From a virus: DNA of 37,204 nt. Of this stretch, positions 3,452 through 14,253 are shown one piece after another. Every line of letters begins with the position of its first letter. Within the stretch, counting starts at the first letter, position 1. Under the pieces are notes generated by a model that did no database searches, was not told the DNA's origin, and was given only the letters and a program-made list of their open reading frames with translations. The stretch lies in UHGV virus genome UHGV-0014568. One strand, written 5' to 3'. The position numbers and the translations under genes were made by a program.

Positions 3452-5922
3452 CAGAATCCCCCAACAGTAAGGCGAGGAATAACAGCAAGAACAGACAGCG
3501 GCAACGGGTCAAGCTGACGGATTCTTACACGTCCGTTTTTGCCCCAGTTACTGTCCAGTTTCACTTCTACTTTTCCGGTAGCGTCATCAATAGGATCATC
3601 GTAGAACTCGAATTCACGCTGTGGATATTCGTACCATTTACCGCCGGGCGTAGTCGCCCAGATGCCGCGGCTGGCATTCACAACCAGAGTAACGGAGGGG
3701 ATCACCTGTTTTTTGTCCAGCAGCGTTTCCTGTCCGTTAATGTTGATATCCAGTGTTTCGAATTCAGCAGTTATTGGCAGGCCGATGTGCACTACAGCCC
3801 CTGGTGATTCAAGCGTGACGGCACCTCCGGAAACTACTTTCTGTGGTTCCACGTTCGCATCAGAGAGGATGTTTACGGTCTGACCTTCAAGATGAGACAA
3901 GCCGCCAAATGCCCGGCGCGCCATCTGCCAGTTCGTGGTGGCCACATTCCTGAGGGATGGCGGGACGTTCCTGTTAGCACGAACCACTACAGCGGTGTTG
4001 CTGGTTACAGAAATAATGTCGCAACGTAATTCTTTTGACACTTCATCGCCAGTATCAGGATCAGTTCCGGTATAAGGGAACTGTAGTTGCGCACCGACAT
4101 CACTACTGGTGAAGTACGCACCACCAGAAATACTGATTGTATATTCCGCGCGGTAATCCCATTCGCCAGAACCACCAGTGATGGTCATCGTTCTGTCAGA
4201 CGTATTTCTTCCATCATAGCTAAGGCCAGAATCAACAAAGAAAGCATCTTCATCGCTGGTAAATAAACGGCTGGACAGCCGCTCGATGTATCTCACTGTT
4301 TGCCCGTTAACGGTTCGGTTAACGACGAAATACACTGCATCTTCATTGCCTTCGCTGATACTGCATGTGCTTTCATATTTTCCGGTACTGGATTGTGGTG
4401 CCCATGCAAAAACCTGCTGATCACGCAAATAGGTCATCACCAGTAATTTACCGTCATCACGAATGCAGAAGGCGCTGGAGTAAGGGACAATAGAGAAGCA
4501 CCAGTCAACAATGCTGTGCTTCTGAAAAAGATGATTGGCAAGGATGGTCAGGTCGTTCCCCTGATAGCCGTCAACATCGAATGAGTAGGCCAGATCACGG
4601 ACAACACTGCCTTTCTCCTGGACGAACAGAGCAATATTCGCCACGGCAATTGGTGGGACATTGCTCGAGCCATTTGATCCCTGAGAGCTGAATGCAAATG
4701 ATGATGGGGTAAGCACTTTGTTCTGGTCGCCGGTGATGACGTACTCACCTCCGGAAGTCAGCGCCACCAGCGAACCGACATCAATCAGGTGGCGGATCTC
4801 ATTAACCTGACGCCCGGCATAGGTGTAGATAATTCTGTCGTCATCCTGCGTAGGATTGCTTTTGCCAAAATCCTTATAATCCCCGGTACGGCTGGCCCAG
4901 ATAGTCTGAGGGAACGCAGTCGATGCGGCGAAGTAAAGACGTTGTTGATAATAAACAACAGTGCCAGGATAACCATTAACACTGTTCCAGGCATATTTAG
5001 CCCATTTATAGCTGGCATTATCCTCGCCAACTACCTGCGAAGGGATATAGGAAATCACCTCGGCAGTTGCAGTAGTTCCATTTGCAGCAGTGATACGGGC
5101 AATGCCAAAACCACTGTGCAGATATTCCCACTCAATGCCAGTATCATCATTACCGGATCCGCCCCAGCCATCCCATGATGTGCCTTCTGTATGCGAAGGG
5201 CGCAAAGTACCTGTTTTGCCTGCTGTAACGGCTCGATAGTAGTTACTGTCTGCACGGCGAATATCGCCAATAGACGTACTCTTACTGGTTTCCCATACCG
5301 GCACTGAATCCACTGCAGGCTGTTCCAGATAGAACAATTTGCCTACCTGCTCCGCGCCAAAAATAGAGGCGCTTGCCGTTAACGTAATTGTCCCGGTGCT
5401 GGCGCTGGCATAAACCGTCACTGACTCGTCAATATTGATATCTTCAAATGGCCCGTTCTTCGTTACCACATCAACCAGTTGCCAGTTGTCATGAGCATAT
5501 CGGCGCAACTCTTTCGGCGGGTATGCCGGGTGAACCAGCGTAAGCACGTCGGCGCTTTGCGTGAATTTAATTCGGAACAGATCGGCTTCAGTATATGGCG
5601 TGGCAATTTCATAAATAACATTGCTGCTGTTCAGCACCAACGCACCATCTTTGATAACGCGCATGTACTGGTGTCCGAACTCCAGAGCATAGGTCTGAAC
5701 CGTCGAGAACTGGAACGGGATCAGGCGGCATTTCCGATTTGGGTATTTGGCGGCACCGACAAAACGCGTACCAGGTCGATTCTCAACGCCGCCATACTGC
5801 CGCACGATAAAGTTATCGCACTTGCGCAATGCCACCTGGTACTTCGCCATGTCAATACGCCCGTACAACGACGGTCCAATCTCACCACCGGCAAAGCTGG
5901 GCTGGATCCAACTGATAGCCAT
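3451..5922 (-). CDS. Tail tubular protein B-like (nozzle) protein
   Basis: 823-aa ORF directly after a ~200-aa gene, as T7 gp11/gp12 are; N-terminus MAISWIQPSFAGGEIGPSLYGR resembles the start of podovirus nozzle proteins (recollection). Confidence 0.45.
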   Translation of the reverse strand: MAISWIQPSFAGGEIGPSLYGRIDMAKYQVALRKCDNFIVRQYGGVENRPGTRFVGAAKYPNRKCRLIPFQFSTVQTYALEFGHQYMRVIKDGALVLNSSNVIYEIATPYTEADLFRIKFTQSADVLTLVHPAYPPKELRRYAHDNWQLVDVVTKNGPFEDINIDESVTVYASASTGTITLTASASIFGAEQVGKLFYLEQPAVDSVPVWETSKSTSIGDIRRADSNYYRAVTAGKTGTLRPSHTEGTSWDGWGGSGNDDTGIEWEYLHSGFGIARITAANGTTATAEVISYIPSQVVGEDNASYKWAKYAWNSVNGYPGTVVYYQQRLYFAASTAFPQTIWASRTGDYKDFGKSNPTQDDDRIIYTYAGRQVNEIRHLIDVGSLVALTSGGEYVITGDQNKVLTPSSFAFSSQGSNGSSNVPPIAVANIALFVQEKGSVVRDLAYSFDVDGYQGNDLTILANHLFQKHSIVDWCFSIVPYSSAFCIRDDGKLLVMTYLRDQQVFAWAPQSSTGKYESTCSISEGNEDAVYFVVNRTVNGQTVRYIERLSSRLFTSDEDAFFVDSGLSYDGRNTSDRTMTITGGSGEWDYRAEYTISISGGAYFTSSDVGAQLQFPYTGTDPDTGDEVSKELRCDIISVTSNTAVVVRANRNVPPSLRNVATTNWQMARRAFGGLSHLEGQTVNILSDANVEPQKVVSGGAVTLESPGAVVHIGLPITAEFETLDININGQETLLDKKQVIPSVTLVVNASRGIWATTPGGKWYEYPQREFEFYDDPIDDATGKVEVKLDSNWGKNGRVRIRQLDPLPLSVLAVIPRLTVGGF

Positions 5923-9438: not shown

Positions 9439-9731
9439 TCCTGTTCACTGGCCTCTTTGGCCATCTTCAAATACTGTTCAGGGCAATGCGCCATAACGCG
9501 CTGAAACAGTTCCAGCGCCAGATTGCGTTGCCCCTCATTAAATGCCATTGCCATAGCGTCCATCGGTGAGATAGCGGAAAACACACGGCCTTTCTCCAGC
9601 ACCGACCAGACAACGCGACGCCCCTGTTCACTGCTCATGACAAAGCGAATGTCATCAATTTCACGCTGCGCCATGTCACGTTGCTTACGGGCGTTTTCTT
9701 CTTTCAGTTGATCGTCTTCGTAATCTGTCAT
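9435..9731 (-). CDS. Small protein between portal and scaffold genes
   Basis: 98-aa ORF whose ends overlap the portal stop and scaffold start by 4 nt each, suggesting translational coupling. Confidence 0.4.
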   Translation of the reverse strand: MTDYEDDQLKEENARKQRDMAQREIDDIRFVMSSEQGRRVVWSVLEKGRVFSAISPMDAMAMAFNEGQRNLALELFQRVMAHCPEQYLKMAKEASEQE

Positions 9732-11407
9732 TGTGATTGCCCACCCTGACCACTAACTGCATTCGCCATAGCTGACAAAACACTCGGATCCGAAGTTTTA
9801 GCTTCGCTTAGCGTCTTGGCACCCTGTGCCGCCGCCATCCCCATCGCCATCATTTGTTGCTGCTGTTGCTGCTGTGCCCGTTGCTGGCGAGCCTGCTCAA
9901 CCTGTTCCTGCGGAACAATGACGGTTGGAGACACTCCGGACATATCAGCGAATGCATCGATCGCCTGATCAACGTTGAGTTTGTCGAGAGCTTCTGGTTT
10001 CGCTTGCGCAAGTTGACCAATGAAGTTAACCGTGGACGCCAGACTGGACAGGCCGATAGACTTCTGCGCCTGAGCCATGACGGAAATGTATTCGACCTTC
10101 AGGGGCATGCCTTCCATCGCGTCAGGCGGTGGCGGCAGCATGTTTTTACGCACCATCATCGAGAAAGCGCGGTAAATGAGAGGATTAAGACATTCGTCGT
10201 TCAGACGCTCAAGTACCGGCCCCAACATCAGAAGTTTTTCTTCTTTCATTTCGATCACCGCTTCAACAGGCATCGAGCGGGTATTGATGTTCTGCAACAT
10301 CATGAACAGATCGACAAAGTAGGCGCTGTTAATGATTTGACGAGTGTCCTGAATGTCTGCCACCAAATCTGCTGTACTGGGGTTAACCAGATAAGCAGGC
10401 CTGAAGCCATCCTGACCAGTAATCTGATCGATATACGTGATGTCGCCAGGAAGAAGGGAGGCGCGCTGATTCTTGAGGGAAGTCGGAGCAACCATCGGCG
10501 GATTGGTGGCTTTATCAATCAACTGCGACTTGCGCTTCTGGAGAAGCTGCAATGCCTTAACAGGTCCAAGCGCCAGCATACCCGGGCATGATGATCCATA
10601 AACATCTTCGCCGTTAACTTCCCAGCGCGGAGCCATAATTGGAAACTCATCAAATCCGGACTCACGCAACAACTTGTCGTTATCGCCACCAACCTCGTAA
10701 TAAACCGATTTGAATGGCTTGTTCTTGCTATCCAGCTTCGATGTATCGCGGTCAATGTTCGGGTAAACCGAATGCATCACTTCAATCCACTTCTCGTAGG
10801 TGCCGCTTTCCCACATGCTTTTTACGGATTCGCTGACGTTATTTAGCCCGAACTCCTGAACAAGCTGACGAACAGTCATAGAGAACTTGCGAAAACAGGT
10901 GTCCACACTGCCACGAGGTGAGTTAGCCAGGTAGTAACTGCCTATCGGGAATGGCATTGTGCGAATGATGTCCTCGTCATCCTCCAGTACTGCCATTGCA
11001 CCAGTGCTGTATGTGCCGAGGCTTCCGTATAACTGCGGCAGCGACTGATAGAGATTCGACTTATTGAACATATCGTTCATGCGGTTCTGCACCGCCTCAA
11101 GCCACAACTTAACAGGACCATAATCCATCATTTCAGGATCAGGCGTAGCCAGGCGAAACCACGGACGCGCGGGGCTTGTGATGCCAGACATCATGCCGCT
11201 GGCGAGAGTGCGCGCCGCCATAGTCCCGGTCGAATCAATAATGCGTGTATTGCGTCGATCGTTACGGTTGACCTCAGAAGTAAGAAAGCGGGAACCACGC
11301 GGGTTGATGTAATCACTCAACTCGCGCCAGTGCGGCTCGAACGACTGACGCTCGCTTTCAAGTTGTGCGAACTGTTTGTTCAATCGCTCTTTAGTTGTTT
11401 CCGCCAT
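9728..11407 (-). CDS. Portal (head-to-tail connector) protein, podovirus/T7 type
   Basis: 559-aa ORF; Gln-rich, Ala/Met-containing C-terminal tail (QQRAQQQQQQQMMAMGMAAAQGA) closely resembles the T7 gp8 C-terminus; lies just downstream of terL. Confidence 0.8.
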   Translation of the reverse strand: MAETTKERLNKQFAQLESERQSFEPHWRELSDYINPRGSRFLTSEVNRNDRRNTRIIDSTGTMAARTLASGMMSGITSPARPWFRLATPDPEMMDYGPVKLWLEAVQNRMNDMFNKSNLYQSLPQLYGSLGTYSTGAMAVLEDDEDIIRTMPFPIGSYYLANSPRGSVDTCFRKFSMTVRQLVQEFGLNNVSESVKSMWESGTYEKWIEVMHSVYPNIDRDTSKLDSKNKPFKSVYYEVGGDNDKLLRESGFDEFPIMAPRWEVNGEDVYGSSCPGMLALGPVKALQLLQKRKSQLIDKATNPPMVAPTSLKNQRASLLPGDITYIDQITGQDGFRPAYLVNPSTADLVADIQDTRQIINSAYFVDLFMMLQNINTRSMPVEAVIEMKEEKLLMLGPVLERLNDECLNPLIYRAFSMMVRKNMLPPPPDAMEGMPLKVEYISVMAQAQKSIGLSSLASTVNFIGQLAQAKPEALDKLNVDQAIDAFADMSGVSPTVIVPQEQVEQARQQRAQQQQQQQMMAMGMAAAQGAKTLSEAKTSDPSVLSAMANAVSGQGGQSQ

Positions 11408-11421
11408 TTCAATGACTCCGG

Positions 11422-11628
11422 TTACTGACCAAGCAGCGTTTTACCGCTGGTATTAGCGGTTGATGTGTCGCCCTGAGAACCGGTAAGCAGCGTAGAACTA
11501 CGACCAGCAGCAGCGCGACGGCGACGTGTTTCTTCGTCGCGGGCATCAACAACGGCAGCATCCTGCTCCTGTGGTGCTGCCTGAACTTCTGGTGTTGCAG
11601 GCACTGATGGTGAGCTACCCATGCACAT
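11422..11628 (-). CDS. Possible small acidic protein upstream of portal
   Basis: 68-aa ORF with a GGAG-type RBS; the same RBS context (CGGAGTCATTGA) precedes the portal start; overlaps another ORF frame, so uncertain. Confidence 0.2.
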   Translation of the reverse strand: MCMGSSPSVPATPEVQAAPQEQDAAVVDARDEETRRRRAAAGRSSTLLTGSQGDTSTANTSGKTLLGQ

Positions 11629-11696: not shown

Positions 11697-11733
11697 TTGA
11701 CATTTAACGCACGAATTATTACCTTTTAGGTAA
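11697..11733 (+). promoter_or_regulatory. Promoter-like region (TTGACA at 11697-11702) with TTACC-N5-GGTAA palindrome (11719-11733) upstream of the tRNA cassette
   Basis: Consensus -35 hexamer; no good -10 at canonical spacing; operator-like palindrome TTACCTTTTAGGTAA overlaps the expected -10/+1 region. Confidence 0.35.
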
Positions 11734-12055
11734 GCAAATGGTTCATTCCAGTTATTAACCTGACTGGCTTGTCGTTAAATTGAACAGGTGGAGTGAGCTT
11801 TTATTTTGAGCAGTACGGCGTATGGCACATGCGCCGATAGCGGTCTGGATACGTTTAAGGGGCACCCTCCCTTGCTCGGGCAAACGAACCAGGTAGCCGG
11901 AATGTGCAAGTCGAGCGGTTTTATTCCGCGCACGGGGATTCACCATCCCGGCGATTCGGTGTGACGCCTCGGAAGAGACGAGGATACAACGATGAGAGCA
12001 TTTCTGGAGCCGCGACAAAGTGTGGCGCCTTAACAGGCTAAGTGCTCTCAGCGTT

Positions 12056-12132
12056 GTGGCATTAGCTCAGTCGGACAGAGCAACCGCCTTCTAAGCGGTT
12101 GGTCGCAGGTTCGAATCCTGCATGCCACGCCA
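12056..12132 (+). tRNA. tRNA-Arg (anticodon UCU, reads AGA)
   Basis: Hand-folded cloverleaf: acceptor GTGGCAT/ATGCCAC, D-stem GCTC/GAGC, anticodon stem ACCGC/GCGGT with loop CTTCTAA (TCT at 12090-12092), T-arm GCAGG-TTCGAAT-CCTGC, discriminator G and encoded CCA. Confidence 0.85.
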
Positions 12133-12330
12133 GAATCACGCCTAAGGACCGTGATGCCAGAAGTTCCAGGTGCTTGGCGGTGATGGTTTCCCTTGAAGGA
12201 CTATCACCGCCCTTTTTACAGCAGGACGCCATTGCGATGACTTCATGCTGTAAACCAGTACAGCCACGGAAGGCATAACTCATTGCTTCCAGTTCGCCCG
12301 GTTCGCCGGGCATTTTTTTAAGGTGAGATT

Positions 12331-12687
12331 ATGAACGACCAGCAAATCGAAAAAGAAATCGTTGAGAAAGGCAAAACGGCACCGCGCGTTACGCCCCAAT
12401 ATATCGAAAGCATCATTCTTGAAGAGCATTTCTTTACTGCTTATGACGGTATTCGTGCCGCCAGTATGGGCGTTGGCGATACGTGGACAGCGCATAAATC
12501 TACAAACCTCCTTACTTTCTGCGTACTGGTGCTGAAGAATGGCTTCACCGTCACCGGAGAGAGCGCATGTGCAAGCCCGGAAAACTTTGATGCAGAAATT
12601 GGTCGGAAGATTGCCCGGCAGAATGCTGTAAACAAAATCTGGATGCTTGAAGGTTACTTGCTGAAGCAGAAGTTAAGCGAGCAATAA
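12331..12687 (+). CDS. Small moron protein, possibly phage Gp49/Sf6 gene-66-like family
   Basis: 118-aa ORF with AAGGTGAG RBS; opposite orientation to the flanking structural genes; family assignment is recollection of a conserved FFTAYDG...GDTW...NGFTVTGESAC pattern. Confidence 0.45.
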   Translation: MNDQQIEKEIVEKGKTAPRVTPQYIESIILEEHFFTAYDGIRAASMGVGDTWTAHKSTNLLTFCVLVLKNGFTVTGESACASPENFDAEIGRKIARQNAVNKIWMLEGYLLKQKLSEQ

Positions 12688-12777: not shown

Positions 12778-14253
12778 TTAAGCATAGGGATCGTAATCTG
12801 TAATGGCCTTGCCTTGCTGGTTCTGCTGACCTGGAATTCGCAGACGCTTCGACACAGGGAAAGCAAACGTCAGCAGTAGCGCATCGCCTTTACCCGGCGA
12901 ACGCCCAAGACGCTCTTTGATATCTTCCTTCGGTTCGATAACGATTTTACCGTCCACACGAACTTTGTACTCTGCCGCCGACAGGTCGTCTGCTGTTTCC
13001 TGGTCATCCAGTATGCCGCCCAGCCTCAGCCATGTCTTGCATGAATTGAACATCTCCCCACGCTTGTTGAGCATCTGCGGGTCAGTAGACGCGCCACCGA
13101 ACGGAACAAGTTGCCATGTACGACCCCATCCGTCACCGATTGACTTCAGACCGGTTCCGTAACCGAAGTCGATGAACACCGCGTCAGCCTGGTACTGGTC
13201 TTCAAAGTCAGCGATACGCTTCGCCATAATCAGATCGTCGGTGGTCTTGTTACCAGTCCATAGCACCTTACTGTGCAGCCCCTGCCGCAGGTATATCACC
13301 GCGTCATCAACGCCTGAGTATGCCGGGTCAACGCCGATTATCACCGGAGCATGTGCAACCTGCGCAGCGGTTACCACCCGTTTCATTGCCTCATCAGTAA
13401 GACCGGTAGGGATAAACTGCAATTCAGATGCATCAGGGAATATGCCGCGCACACGGATTTTAACGAAGTCGCTGTCTTCCCCGTAGTCATCAACCCATTT
13501 CTGCAACTGCTGTTTGTTAGTGCCTTCCACCGTCCGGCTGTCAATCTGCGCACACTTCCAGCGGTGTTTGTACTTGCGGAAACATTCACGGAAACGCCCG
13601 GTGTTACGCGTCGGGTTCCCGAACGCCACCCAGATGATTTCGGTGTCTTCGTCCGTCAGCGCACCCTCTGCTACCTCCCACACCAGATCGGCAATGTTCG
13701 ACGCTTCATCGAATACCACGATGATGCGTTTGCGCTCGTTGTGTAGTCCGGCGAATGCCTCAGTGTTGTGCTCAGACCAGGGGATTGCGTCAGCTCGCCA
13801 CCGCTTGTCGTGCCCAGGATCATTGCTGTACATCGCGGTAGCGGTACAGGTAAACCAGTCTTTCGTGATAGCAAGGTTCGACCACTTGATAATTTCCGGC
13901 CAGGTCTTCGTTCGTAGCTGGTTGTCGGTGTTGGCGGTCACCACGACCTTACAATCCTCGCAAGTGGACATGCCCCAGTTGATCAGCATTGAGATGAATG
14001 CGGATTTACCAATACCGTGACCAGAAGCGCGTGCCAGCATAAGCGGCTGATAGCGCGTCTCTGGATTCTGCAGGTGATCACGTATCTCTCGGAACGCATC
14101 AGCCTGCCACTGACGTGGGCCGGTGGCATGTGCCAGTTCAGTCCCCTCTTCCCCCCACGGGAACGCATAGAGGGCATAGCCAAGCGGATCGTGAGTGAAC
14201 CCTGCAATATCCTCGATCAACTGCTCTTCAGGAGATAACGCTGTATCTGTCAC
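12778..14253 (-). CDS. terL: Terminase large subunit
   Basis: 491-aa ORF; Walker A-like GHGIGKS near the N-terminus; overlaps terS by 4 nt; GTG start per ORF track. Confidence 0.85.
   Translation of the reverse strand: MTDTALSPEEQLIEDIAGFTHDPLGYALYAFPWGEEGTELAHATGPRQWQADAFREIRDHLQNPETRYQPLMLARASGHGIGKSAFISMLINWGMSTCEDCKVVVTANTDNQLRTKTWPEIIKWSNLAITKDWFTCTATAMYSNDPGHDKRWRADAIPWSEHNTEAFAGLHNERKRIIVVFDEASNIADLVWEVAEGALTDEDTEIIWVAFGNPTRNTGRFRECFRKYKHRWKCAQIDSRTVEGTNKQQLQKWVDDYGEDSDFVKIRVRGIFPDASELQFIPTGLTDEAMKRVVTAAQVAHAPVIIGVDPAYSGVDDAVIYLRQGLHSKVLWTGNKTTDDLIMAKRIADFEDQYQADAVFIDFGYGTGLKSIGDGWGRTWQLVPFGGASTDPQMLNKRGEMFNSCKTWLRLGGILDDQETADDLSAAEYKVRVDGKIVIEPKEDIKERLGRSPGKGDALLLTFAFPVSKRLRIPGQQNQQGKAITDYDPYA

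Follow-up and report, generated by a model that had tools for sequence, protein, structure and literature searches.

A conserved, previously unannotated pseudoknotted RNA in the early leader of phiV10-like and other temperate enterobacterial phages

The virus genome UHGV-0014568 was analyzed as one stretch of 37,204 nucleotides (hereafter the window). The window phage is phiV10-like (Uetakevirus); over the region described here, phiV10 and the O157 typing phages 9 and 10 share 98.8% identity with it. At positions 11732–12058 of the plus strand the window contains a non-coding, modular RNA, which consists of an optional 5′ domain (P0), a pseudoknotted core (helices P1–P6), and P7, a long helix that closes the structure. 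The original prediction had described the interval 11734–12055 as a non-coding leader upstream of a tRNA that may encode a structured RNA. This interval coincides almost exactly with a single modular RNA that extends from the predicted transcription start to the tRNA. The RNA is about 190 to 330 bases long, and its core comprises about 190 nt (~11815–12002). The leader had also been called GC-rich, and its G+C content is indeed 56–57%, compared to 37% in the promoter region and 46–53% nearby. The parts of the RNA in the window are:

11740–11799, plus strand: P0 domain, in which GGUUCAUUCC (11740–11749) pairs with GGAGUGAGCU (11790–11799) and encloses a hairpin (11748–11767); from the minimum free energy (MFE) fold.
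11816–11836, plus strand: P1 hairpin CGGCGUAUG-GCA-CAUGCGCCG with 9 bp, 98.8% paired, with the 3′ strand ACAUG invariant.
11841–11899, plus strand: P2, in which CGGU and CUG pair with CAG...GCCG, with a GUA bulge, around the variable P3 hairpin; from covariation.
11899–11910, plus strand: invariant single-stranded junction GGAAUGUGCAAG, the same in 43 of 43 representatives.
11915–11929, plus strand: small hairpin P4, GCGG-UUUUAUU-CCGC in the window, with pairing judged by inspection.
11935–11961, plus strand: P5 hairpin GGGA-UUCACCA-UCCC (11935–11949) and the pseudoknot, in which CACC (11941–11944) pairs with GGUG (11958–11961).
11967–11983, plus strand: P6 hairpin CCUCG-GAAGAGA-CGAGG with a conserved GGAAGAG loop; from covariation.
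11985–12058, plus strand: long closing helix P7, in which UACAAC-GAUGAGAGCAUU (11985–12003) pairs with AAGUGCUCUCAGC-GUUGUG (12040–12058); from folding and covariation.

The fold of the window sequence alone was barely better than that of shuffled sequences (z = −2.0 for the plus strand and −1.1 for the minus strand), and the case for a structured RNA therefore rests on the comparison with relatives. An alignment of 43 representatives, made with MAFFT, consisted of invariant blocks between length-variable hairpins. In this alignment, 95.8% of the cells were standard pairs, compared to 28–45% when the pairing partners were slid, and 12 pairs had changes on both sides. None of 500 shuffles reached any of these measures. 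A covariance model built from the alignment (R1) scored 155.7 bits on window positions 11812–12003 and retrieved 72 distinct sequences from 96 other loci. Over these 72 sequences, the 29 pairs in 6 helices, including the pseudoknot, were 98.2% paired (slid controls, 29–44%). Compensatory change was present at 12 pairs, with 197 doubly changed cells, and again 0 of 500 shuffles reached the observed values. The secondary structure is thus conserved in the relatives, and the proposal that the leader encodes a structured RNA is borne out by a specific plus-strand structure supported by covariation.

The individual helices changed in a compensated manner. In P1, column pair 9/21 was G-C in 44 and A-U in 26 of the 72 distinct sequences. 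Column pair 35/94 of P2 was C-G in 37, U-A in 28, and U-G in 6 sequences. The P2/P3 segment is 33 to 57 nt long among the homologues, and the P3 loop carries a conserved CCUUG. P4 varies in both sequence and length, its segment being 23–33 nt in homologues. Three of the four P5 pairs showed compensatory changes. The hairpin GGGGATTCACCATCCCGG, quoted in the original prediction as an example of a local hairpin, is real and corresponds to helix P5, the loop of which takes part in the pseudoknot. The pseudoknot itself was 100% paired and never broken; its first pair was C-G in 49 and A-U in 23 sequences, and AACC/GGUU is a natural variant of CACC/GGUG. In P6, column pair 177/188 was C-G in 39 and G-C in 32 sequences, and column pair 176/189 was U-A in 54 and C-G in 13. 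The sequence CAUGCGYCG, which closes a CGGCG stem, is invariant in the element.

Other pairings were considered and rejected. The long-range helix AAUGUGC/GCAYU, proposed by RNAalifold, was paired in only 84% of the cells and had no compensatory pair, and the well-supported P7 is a better explanation. An extension of P6 (UGUG/YRCA) is incompatible with the pseudoknot and with the P7 base, for each of which compensatory changes were seen.

The core is flanked by two long helices of similar build. P0, present in many members including the window, is built like P7, in the order CACAAC, helix, GGUGUG. In relatives, the P0 module AAAGCGCAYUCC...GGAGUGCGCUUYC is compensatory by inspection (GCGCGC/GCGCGC versus GCGCAC/GUGCGC). 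In the epsilon15 record, an ‘RNaseIII mRNA processing’ site is annotated over P0, on the opposite strand. P7 opens with YRYAAC after P6, continues with the strands GAUGAGAGCAYUG and CARUGCUCUCAGC, and closes with GUUGUGG. Its insert of 40–130 nt is wholly different between lineages. All 48 distinct P7 stem pairs gave the same helix, with several pair types at most positions, and P7 was fully compensated at loci L015, L163, L148, and L030 (locus labels are ours). The MFE of P7 was −26.8 kcal/mol with its own partners and −20.5 kcal/mol with swapped partners. In the window, the final 3 bp of P7 use nucleotides 1–3 of the tRNA-Arg.

A resemblance to boxA is seen in the 3′ strand of P7 (GUGCUCUCAG or GUGCUCUUUCC). 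P7 is missing at two loci, L091 and L084. There, P6 is followed on its 3′ side by a hairpin and then by UGCUCUUUAACAA (L091) or the near-match AGCUCUUUAAUAA (L084); UGCUCUUUAACAA is identical to the rrn-type boxA core. The boxA-like P7 strand and these variants hint at a possible involvement of Nus factors.

Several members carry additional structures around P7. In 1720a-02, SPN9TCW, and relatives (L012, L013, and L019), the P7 insert contains two T-loop-like hairpins, CUGGUUCAAUUCCAG and GUCCGUUCGAUUCGGAC, and no tRNA was called in it; the P7 insert of the window has no such hairpins. At L049 and L125, GUUGUGGU on the 3′ side of P7 can also pair with ACCACAAC ~90 nt downstream, which suggests a further domain or an alternative pairing. 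A hairpin GUGGUGAAUGCGCAGGCUGAUGCGC on the 3′ side of P7 is common to many lambdoid members.

According to one alternative, the region would hold no RNA element: either strand might encode a small protein, or the region might be a degenerate tRNA or a DNA site such as an operator, origin, or attachment site. Open reading frames (ORFs) of 87, 52, 52, and 45 amino acids do overlap the region, and several phage records annotate hypothetical proteins across it. The absence of a plus-strand ORF longer than about 23 codons, noted earlier, holds for ATG starts (longest, 24 codons), but not for TTG and GTG starts, from which ORFs of 52 aa (11806–11964) and 45 aa (11904–12041) exist. The 87-aa ORF at 11755–12018 on the minus strand, with a TTG start, also exists, and had rightly been regarded as non-coding, as reading frames are conserved on neither strand. 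The lengths of two variable segments fell into all classes modulo 3 (22/12/9 and 17/15/11 among 43 homologues), and an entropy analysis detected no 3-base periodicity in the conserved blocks. These frame and periodicity tests were decisive, as the length of stop-free frames on both strands is uninformative in a G+C-rich stretch of 170–200 nt. Because lengths ignore the codon phase, periodicity is absent, and substitutions in the plus-strand helices are compensatory, the ORFs annotated across the element in several GenBank records are spurious. The strand of the element is, moreover, always that of the downstream genes. An ATG at 11992 (GAUGAGAGC, 13 codons) with an upstream GAGG resembled an RBS-sequestering design (RBS, ribosome-binding site), but relatives have AGGUAAGAGC or CCAAAAGAGC at this place, where the sequence forms the 5′ side of P7, so a coding role was rejected. 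The earlier suggestion of a degenerate tRNA was not upheld, since nothing in the leader matched a tRNA, and ARAGORN and Rfam found only the intact tRNA-Arg at 12056–12132. The coding, tRNA-remnant, and DNA-site readings are thus effectively excluded, and we regard this whole alternative as scarcely credible. The region may instead be a processed leader or a small RNA, the two options that had been listed beside the degenerate tRNA.

The RNA family was previously unannotated and is absent from Rfam 15. The Infernal/Rfam scan that had been suggested as a check on the leader was run on 11734–12055 and returned no known family even at E values up to 10, including tmRNA, 6S, RNase P, C4, EAR, GOLLD, ROOL, riboswitches, and ribozymes. 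At the gathering score, a scan of the window and 15 related loci found only tRNAs. We found no earlier description in the literature on structured phage RNAs, antiterminator RNAs, mEp phages, and P1 transcription or in phage sRNA (small RNA) reviews, where an earlier mention is nevertheless possible. The lambda PreS/LPR1 RNA was considered and is a different RNA, located at tL2a.

The core is 72–82% identical across otherwise unrelated phages. Its carriers include P1, P7, D6, SJ46, and RCS47; the lambdoid phages cdtI, 2H10, 1720a-02, mEp390, and 733R5; Stx2c-converting and some Stx2a-converting phages; Uetakeviruses of Klebsiella, Enterobacter, and Salmonella; Klebsiella phage SopranoGao; and phages deposited as Stenotrophomonas phages. 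Pattern scans were anchored on the invariant stretch GGAAUGUGCAAG. In IMG/VR, at least 120 contigs with the element were found, and the species-representative genomes contained 24 loci (Escherichia, Citrobacter, Klebsiella, Enterobacter, Kosakonia, Phytobacter, Kluyvera, Buttiauxella, Erwinia, and others). Prophages with the element occur in about 14 enterobacterial genera. It is present in about one third of the complete E. coli genomes (1841 of 5426), and 554 of its 2476 places in E. coli are on plasmids; the plasmid places listed are on replicons of 80–99 kb, which match the query over the same 66% as P1 does. Among the 40 E. coli places listed, 39 have no annotated feature in RefSeq and one is annotated as a ‘hypothetical protein’.

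Some individual loci deserve mention. The top-scoring member (178.2 bits) is L159, a 1753-bp contig of a metagenome-assembled genome labeled ‘Bacillota bacterium’ (JAIIAN010000430.1), which is most likely mis-binned enterobacterial phage DNA. The deposited host of BUCT708 (L007) is Stenotrophomonas, yet all genome matches are in Enterobacterales. In SopranoGao (L010; genus Lastavirus), the element lies directly after the lysis genes, behind its own terminator and promoter. Loci carry one copy, co-oriented with the downstream genes, with the exception of L033 (IMGVR_UViG_2791355294_000005). Multiple copies were seen at this locus alone, as tandem cores at 4786–4961 and 3979–4156 of the minus strand (177.1 and 133.8 bits), with ends ~630 nt and starts ~805 nt apart.

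Upstream of the element in the window lie:

11697–11725, plus strand: predicted sigma-70 early promoter, with the −35 box TTGACA (11697–11702), a 17-bp spacer, and the −10 box TACCTT (11720–11725).
11719–11733, no strand assigned: inverted repeat TTACC-TTTTA-GGTAA, a putative repressor operator that overlaps the −10 box.

Transcription is predicted to start near 11732, and the leader is presumably transcribed from this promoter. The strict consensus scan missed the promoter because its −10 box fits only TAnnnT. The −35 box and the −10/operator region are kept across divergent Uetakevirus members, with a varying spacer. The inverted repeat ATTATTACCnnnnnGGTAA is kept in all Uetakevirus-type upstream regions, with homologous sites at L009, L013, L020, and L087, and is probably the Uetakevirus repressor operator.

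Judged by the genes and sites around it, the element appears always to be downstream of a repressor-controlled early promoter. In the window, the operator-overlapped promoter is 84 nt upstream. In lambdoid phages, the order is a cI-type repressor gene, its intrinsic terminator, operator-like inverted repeats, a PL-like promoter, and the element. Six unrelated types of lambdoid upstream repressors were tested, all encoded on the same strand; four had a helix-turn-helix (HTH) and a Peptidase_S24 domain, and two had the HTH only. The cdtI promoter, TTGACA-16-CATAAT, is strong (11/12). The lambdoid RNA starts about 50 nt past the −10 box, about 125 nt past it when P0 is present, and 7–8 nt past it in the shortest versions. 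The lambdoid element thus takes the PL slot, where lambda has nutL and N and HK022 has putL. In phage P1, the C1-controlled ban operon contains the element, with trnI on one side and ban on the other.

Beyond the leader, the rightward unit of the window consists of a tRNA-Arg(UCU), two terminator-like hairpins, and one ORF:

12056–12132, plus strand: tRNA-Arg (anticodon UCU), found by ARAGORN and Rfam (73.3 bits), co-oriented with the element and directly adjoining it.
12176–12211, plus strand: T1, a terminator-like hairpin with a 14-bp stem after the tRNA, predicted by consensus scan.
12296–12319, plus strand: T2, a strong intrinsic terminator (GCCCGG-UUCG-CCGGGC and U7), predicted by consensus scan.
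12331–12687, plus strand: ORF of the Phage_gp49_66 family (Pfam PF13876, E = 3.5e-34), the sole protein gene of the plus-strand unit.

A tRNA was found within 600 nt of the element midpoint at 46 of 136 loci and none nearby at the other 90, and the tRNA is therefore an accessory to the element, which is not defined by it. tRNAs adjoin the element in two lineages, as tRNA-Arg on the 3′ side in Uetakeviruses and as trnI on the 5′ side in P1-like phages; this trnI is tRNA-Ile2, called tRNA-Met(cat) by ARAGORN. T1 occurs only in the tRNA-bearing Uetakeviruses, and members without the tRNA also have no T1. T1 therefore probably came with the tRNA-Arg as an inserted cassette (12056–12211).

T2 is a near-ideal terminator, with GCCCGGUUCGCCGGGC followed by U7 (GCCCGGTTCGCCGGGC followed by T7 in the DNA), and directly adjoins the RBS (AAGGUGAG; AAGGTGAG) and the ATG of ORF 12331–12687. 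There is no room for a promoter between T2 and this ORF, which therefore depends on read-through of T2. The T2-RBS-ORF arrangement is kept in Uetakeviruses including epsilon15, and lambdoids of the BUCT708 type have a similar predicted terminator 124 nt past the element. The first conserved ORF is often 350–900 nt downstream of the element, and none of the first downstream ORFs is Arg-rich and N-like. The downstream genes are unrelated in function across the loci. The epsilon15 genome (L005, AY150271.2; 2047–2132 and 1953–2052) differs by one clean deletion from P3 to the middle of T1, and keeps P0, P1, part of P2/P3, T2, and the ORF.

The segment at 12243–12319, composed of a hairpin GGAAGGCATAACTCATTGCTTCC and T2, gave weak, sub-threshold Rfam matches to Hfq-type sRNAs (RyhB, E = 1.3; others) and could be the 3′ end of a small RNA. 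The T1–T2 segment is conserved in epsilon15.

The rightward unit is set among leftward genes:

9728–11407, minus strand: portal gene, part of the leftward structural operon.
11422–11628, minus strand: small ORF, part of the same operon.
12778–14253, minus strand: large terminase gene, which converges on the rightward unit.

We tentatively propose, at a likelihood somewhat short of even, that the element is a cis-acting RNA that licenses terminator read-through, put-like in its action but outside the put family. A cis licence is proposed because of its place at the head of the early transcript, the slot otherwise held by putL or nutL, the lack of N, the long tRNA-bearing leaders, and the terminator in front of the ORF. 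The leader RNA would be the first product of the repressor-controlled early promoter. While nascent, it would act in cis on its own RNA polymerase, alone or with host Nus factors, and the elongation complex so modified would withstand both intrinsic and Rho-dependent terminators. Passage through T2-like terminators, across long untranslated stretches that can carry tRNA genes, and into the downstream genes would thereby be reserved for transcripts begun at the proper early promoter. This would be the same job as that of putL in HK022 and of nutL with N in lambda. Both steps, the binding of RNA polymerase and the read-through of terminators by the element, are what we infer. The tRNAs next to the element in two lineages can be likened to antiterminated rrn operons.

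Several observations weigh against this proposal. In epsilon15, the core is dispensable, because P3 to T1 is deleted while T2 and the ORF are kept. In phage P1, the element has no P7 and lies ~2.3 kb from the operon promoter. In the window, the element would serve a unit with just one ORF, an accessory one. A scan restricted to intrinsic terminators detected no canonical one within 1.4 kb in the most frequent lambdoid types. Over all loci, terminator-like hairpins were not enriched in the downstream sense direction (158, compared to 209 antisense), and it is the specific conserved terminators that are informative, not such overall counts. The tandem copies at L033 fit a dosage-dependent product better than a cis licence. 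The element, with its ~190-nt core, six helices, pseudoknot, and optional P0 and P7, is two to four times larger than put. The family model R1 did not match HK022 or HK639, even with filters off on the put regions, and a put model (R2, 5 sequences) gave only E = 0.9–1.2 on the window. As the covariance models find no relationship either way, the element is not filed under put.

The tandem copies fit more readily with the core as a stand-alone stable RNA, excised by RNase III, RNase P, or RNase E at P0, P7, and the tRNA, which, early in infection or induction, would act in trans on a conserved target of the host, for example RNA polymerase, the ribosome, or a defence system. Precedents would be the stable RNAs C and D from the tRNA cluster of T4 and two large RNAs of phages, GOLLD and ROOL. 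The core is ornate and sizeable, and contains invariant single-stranded motifs such as GGAAUGUGCAAG and GGAAGAG. The two long helices around it are plausible RNase III substrates, as the RNase III annotation over P0 in epsilon15 also suggests. In two lineages the core lies directly beside tRNAs, and P7 extends over the site of RNase P cleavage in the tRNA-Arg. The transcription unit of the window is mostly RNA, and dispensability, as seen in epsilon15, is common among accessory RNAs. The element is, further, much larger than put has to be, and that of phage P1 is without P7 and distant from its operon promoter. However, at most loci the core is not followed by a terminator or an obvious 3′ end, and transcription continues into protein genes. 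A strict place after a repressor-controlled promoter would not be needed for action in trans, no Rfam family matched (including GOLLD, ROOL, and 6S), and no complementarity to a target was identified. We therefore consider a stable RNA acting in trans a serious candidate, though a doubtful one.

The processing signs are also open to a narrower interpretation, in which the leader is only an RNA-processing or stability element that guides tRNA maturation by RNase III or RNase P or shields the 5′ end of the early mRNA, and that leaves transcription unaffected. P7 does overlap the 5′ end of the tRNA, the RNase III annotation lies over P0, and the first helix can begin at the 5′ end of the transcript, as in 5′ stabilisers. 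This is unlikely, because two thirds of the loci have no tRNA nearby, and such a function needs no 190-nt pseudoknotted core with invariant single-stranded motifs, kept at about 72–82% identity across unrelated phages. It is just as improbable that the core works as a sensor, whether as a riboswitch or as a leader that binds a protein or tRNA, and couples a host signal to elongation in the early operon by switching between alternative pairings of the repeated CAMC and G(G/U)UGUG motifs. Three CA(A/C)C / G(G/U)UGUG motif pairs could swap partners, GUUGUGGU at L049 and L125 can pair with the downstream ACCACAAC, and some P7 inserts have T-loop-like hairpins. The pseudoknotted multi-helix junction, with its invariant nucleotides beside very variable peripheral and 3′ modules, is also aptamer-like. 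On the other hand, covariation supports one structure only, no conserved terminator or RBS-sequestering platform is adjacent (terminators are 120–300 nt away, with the tRNA between), and no ligand can be deduced because the downstream genes are functionally unrelated. There is a slim chance that, as a combined sensor and effector, the leader binds a host metabolite, protein, or tRNA and decides on the entry of polymerase into the early operon. In that event, host physiology would feed directly into the lytic commitment of P1-like, Stx-converting, lambdoid, and epsilon15-like phages, which are carried by a third of E. coli strains.

If the proposed cis licence is true, the element would represent a second class of RNA, structurally unrelated, by which bacterial RNA polymerase is reprogrammed from the nascent transcript. 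This class would be much more common than put, being present in P1, Stx2c and some Stx2a phages, cdtI, and O157-typing, Salmonella, and Klebsiella phages. It would also explain how lambdoids without an N gene express the early-left operon via long untranslated leaders, and why tRNA genes settle beside the element. Whatever the mechanism, early phage transcription has at its control point a conserved pseudoknotted RNA of ~190 nt. This RNA lends itself to structural and genetic studies in tractable phages such as P1, phiV10, mEp390, and SPN1S, and merits inclusion in annotation pipelines, which at present predict spurious hypothetical proteins over it.

Among known RNAs, RNAs C and D of T4, GOLLD, and ROOL are likewise encoded by phages or prophages, often next to tRNA genes, and are ornate and conserved, with no known function. 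None of them matches the element in sequence or structure. The element is smaller than GOLLD and ROOL and, unlike all of these RNAs, is tied to the early promoters of temperate enterobacterial phages. Processive antitermination linked to an RNA is known from the rrn leader (boxB-boxA-boxC), EAR of Bacillus, and conAn2 of conjugative elements. These systems, like the element, involve untranslated structured transcripts with tRNA or stable-RNA genes that need protection from Rho, and long leader helices that are possible RNase III substrates. The Rfam family of EAR did not match the element. The nutL site of lambda, which consists of boxA and boxB and works with N and Nus factors, occupies the same slot, the leader of the PL operon, but there the N gene is the first of the operon, whereas no N-like Arg-rich protein follows the element. 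The boxA-like sequence of the element also differs from nutL in being base-paired in P7 and replaced by compensated sequences in some members, and no boxB-like hairpin with a GNRA-type pentaloop was identified in the element.

The closest functional parallel would be put, a ~70-nt RNA with two stems and a short triplex (PMC9378689). For put, read-through in cis without phage proteins has been demonstrated and is blocked by mutations in the zinc-binding domain of rpoC; for the element, read-through would follow by analogy. A second, putR-like copy of the element in the right operon was not found. In the HK639 record (L138), an ‘M3-like RNA’ is annotated at 37910–37969, right after the cII-like gene. 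Cryo-EM has shown that U28 (in CAUGCGUCGG) and A64 (in CGGCAAUGCUGC) of put are critical and contact the zinc-binding domain of beta-prime (PMC9378689), and CCGGAAUGUGC of the element resembles both of these put sequences. The two RNAs also share the short motifs of a CGGCG stem closed by CAUGCGYCG and CGG(C)AAUG(C)UGC. The likenesses to put motifs and to boxA may serve as leads, not as tests. The slot is also common to the two RNAs, being the leader of an early operon just after PL or PR. The put of HK639 is annotated just after pL, that of HK022 is between cI and nun, and those of the P22-like UPF_BP1 and S9-5 are on the same strand as the repressor gene and closely downstream of it, ~140 nt in UPF_BP1; in S9-5, the repressor gene is ~75 nt before the alignment match (record coordinates). 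Like put, the element is a structured RNA encoded in cis, with terminators and no N gene after it.

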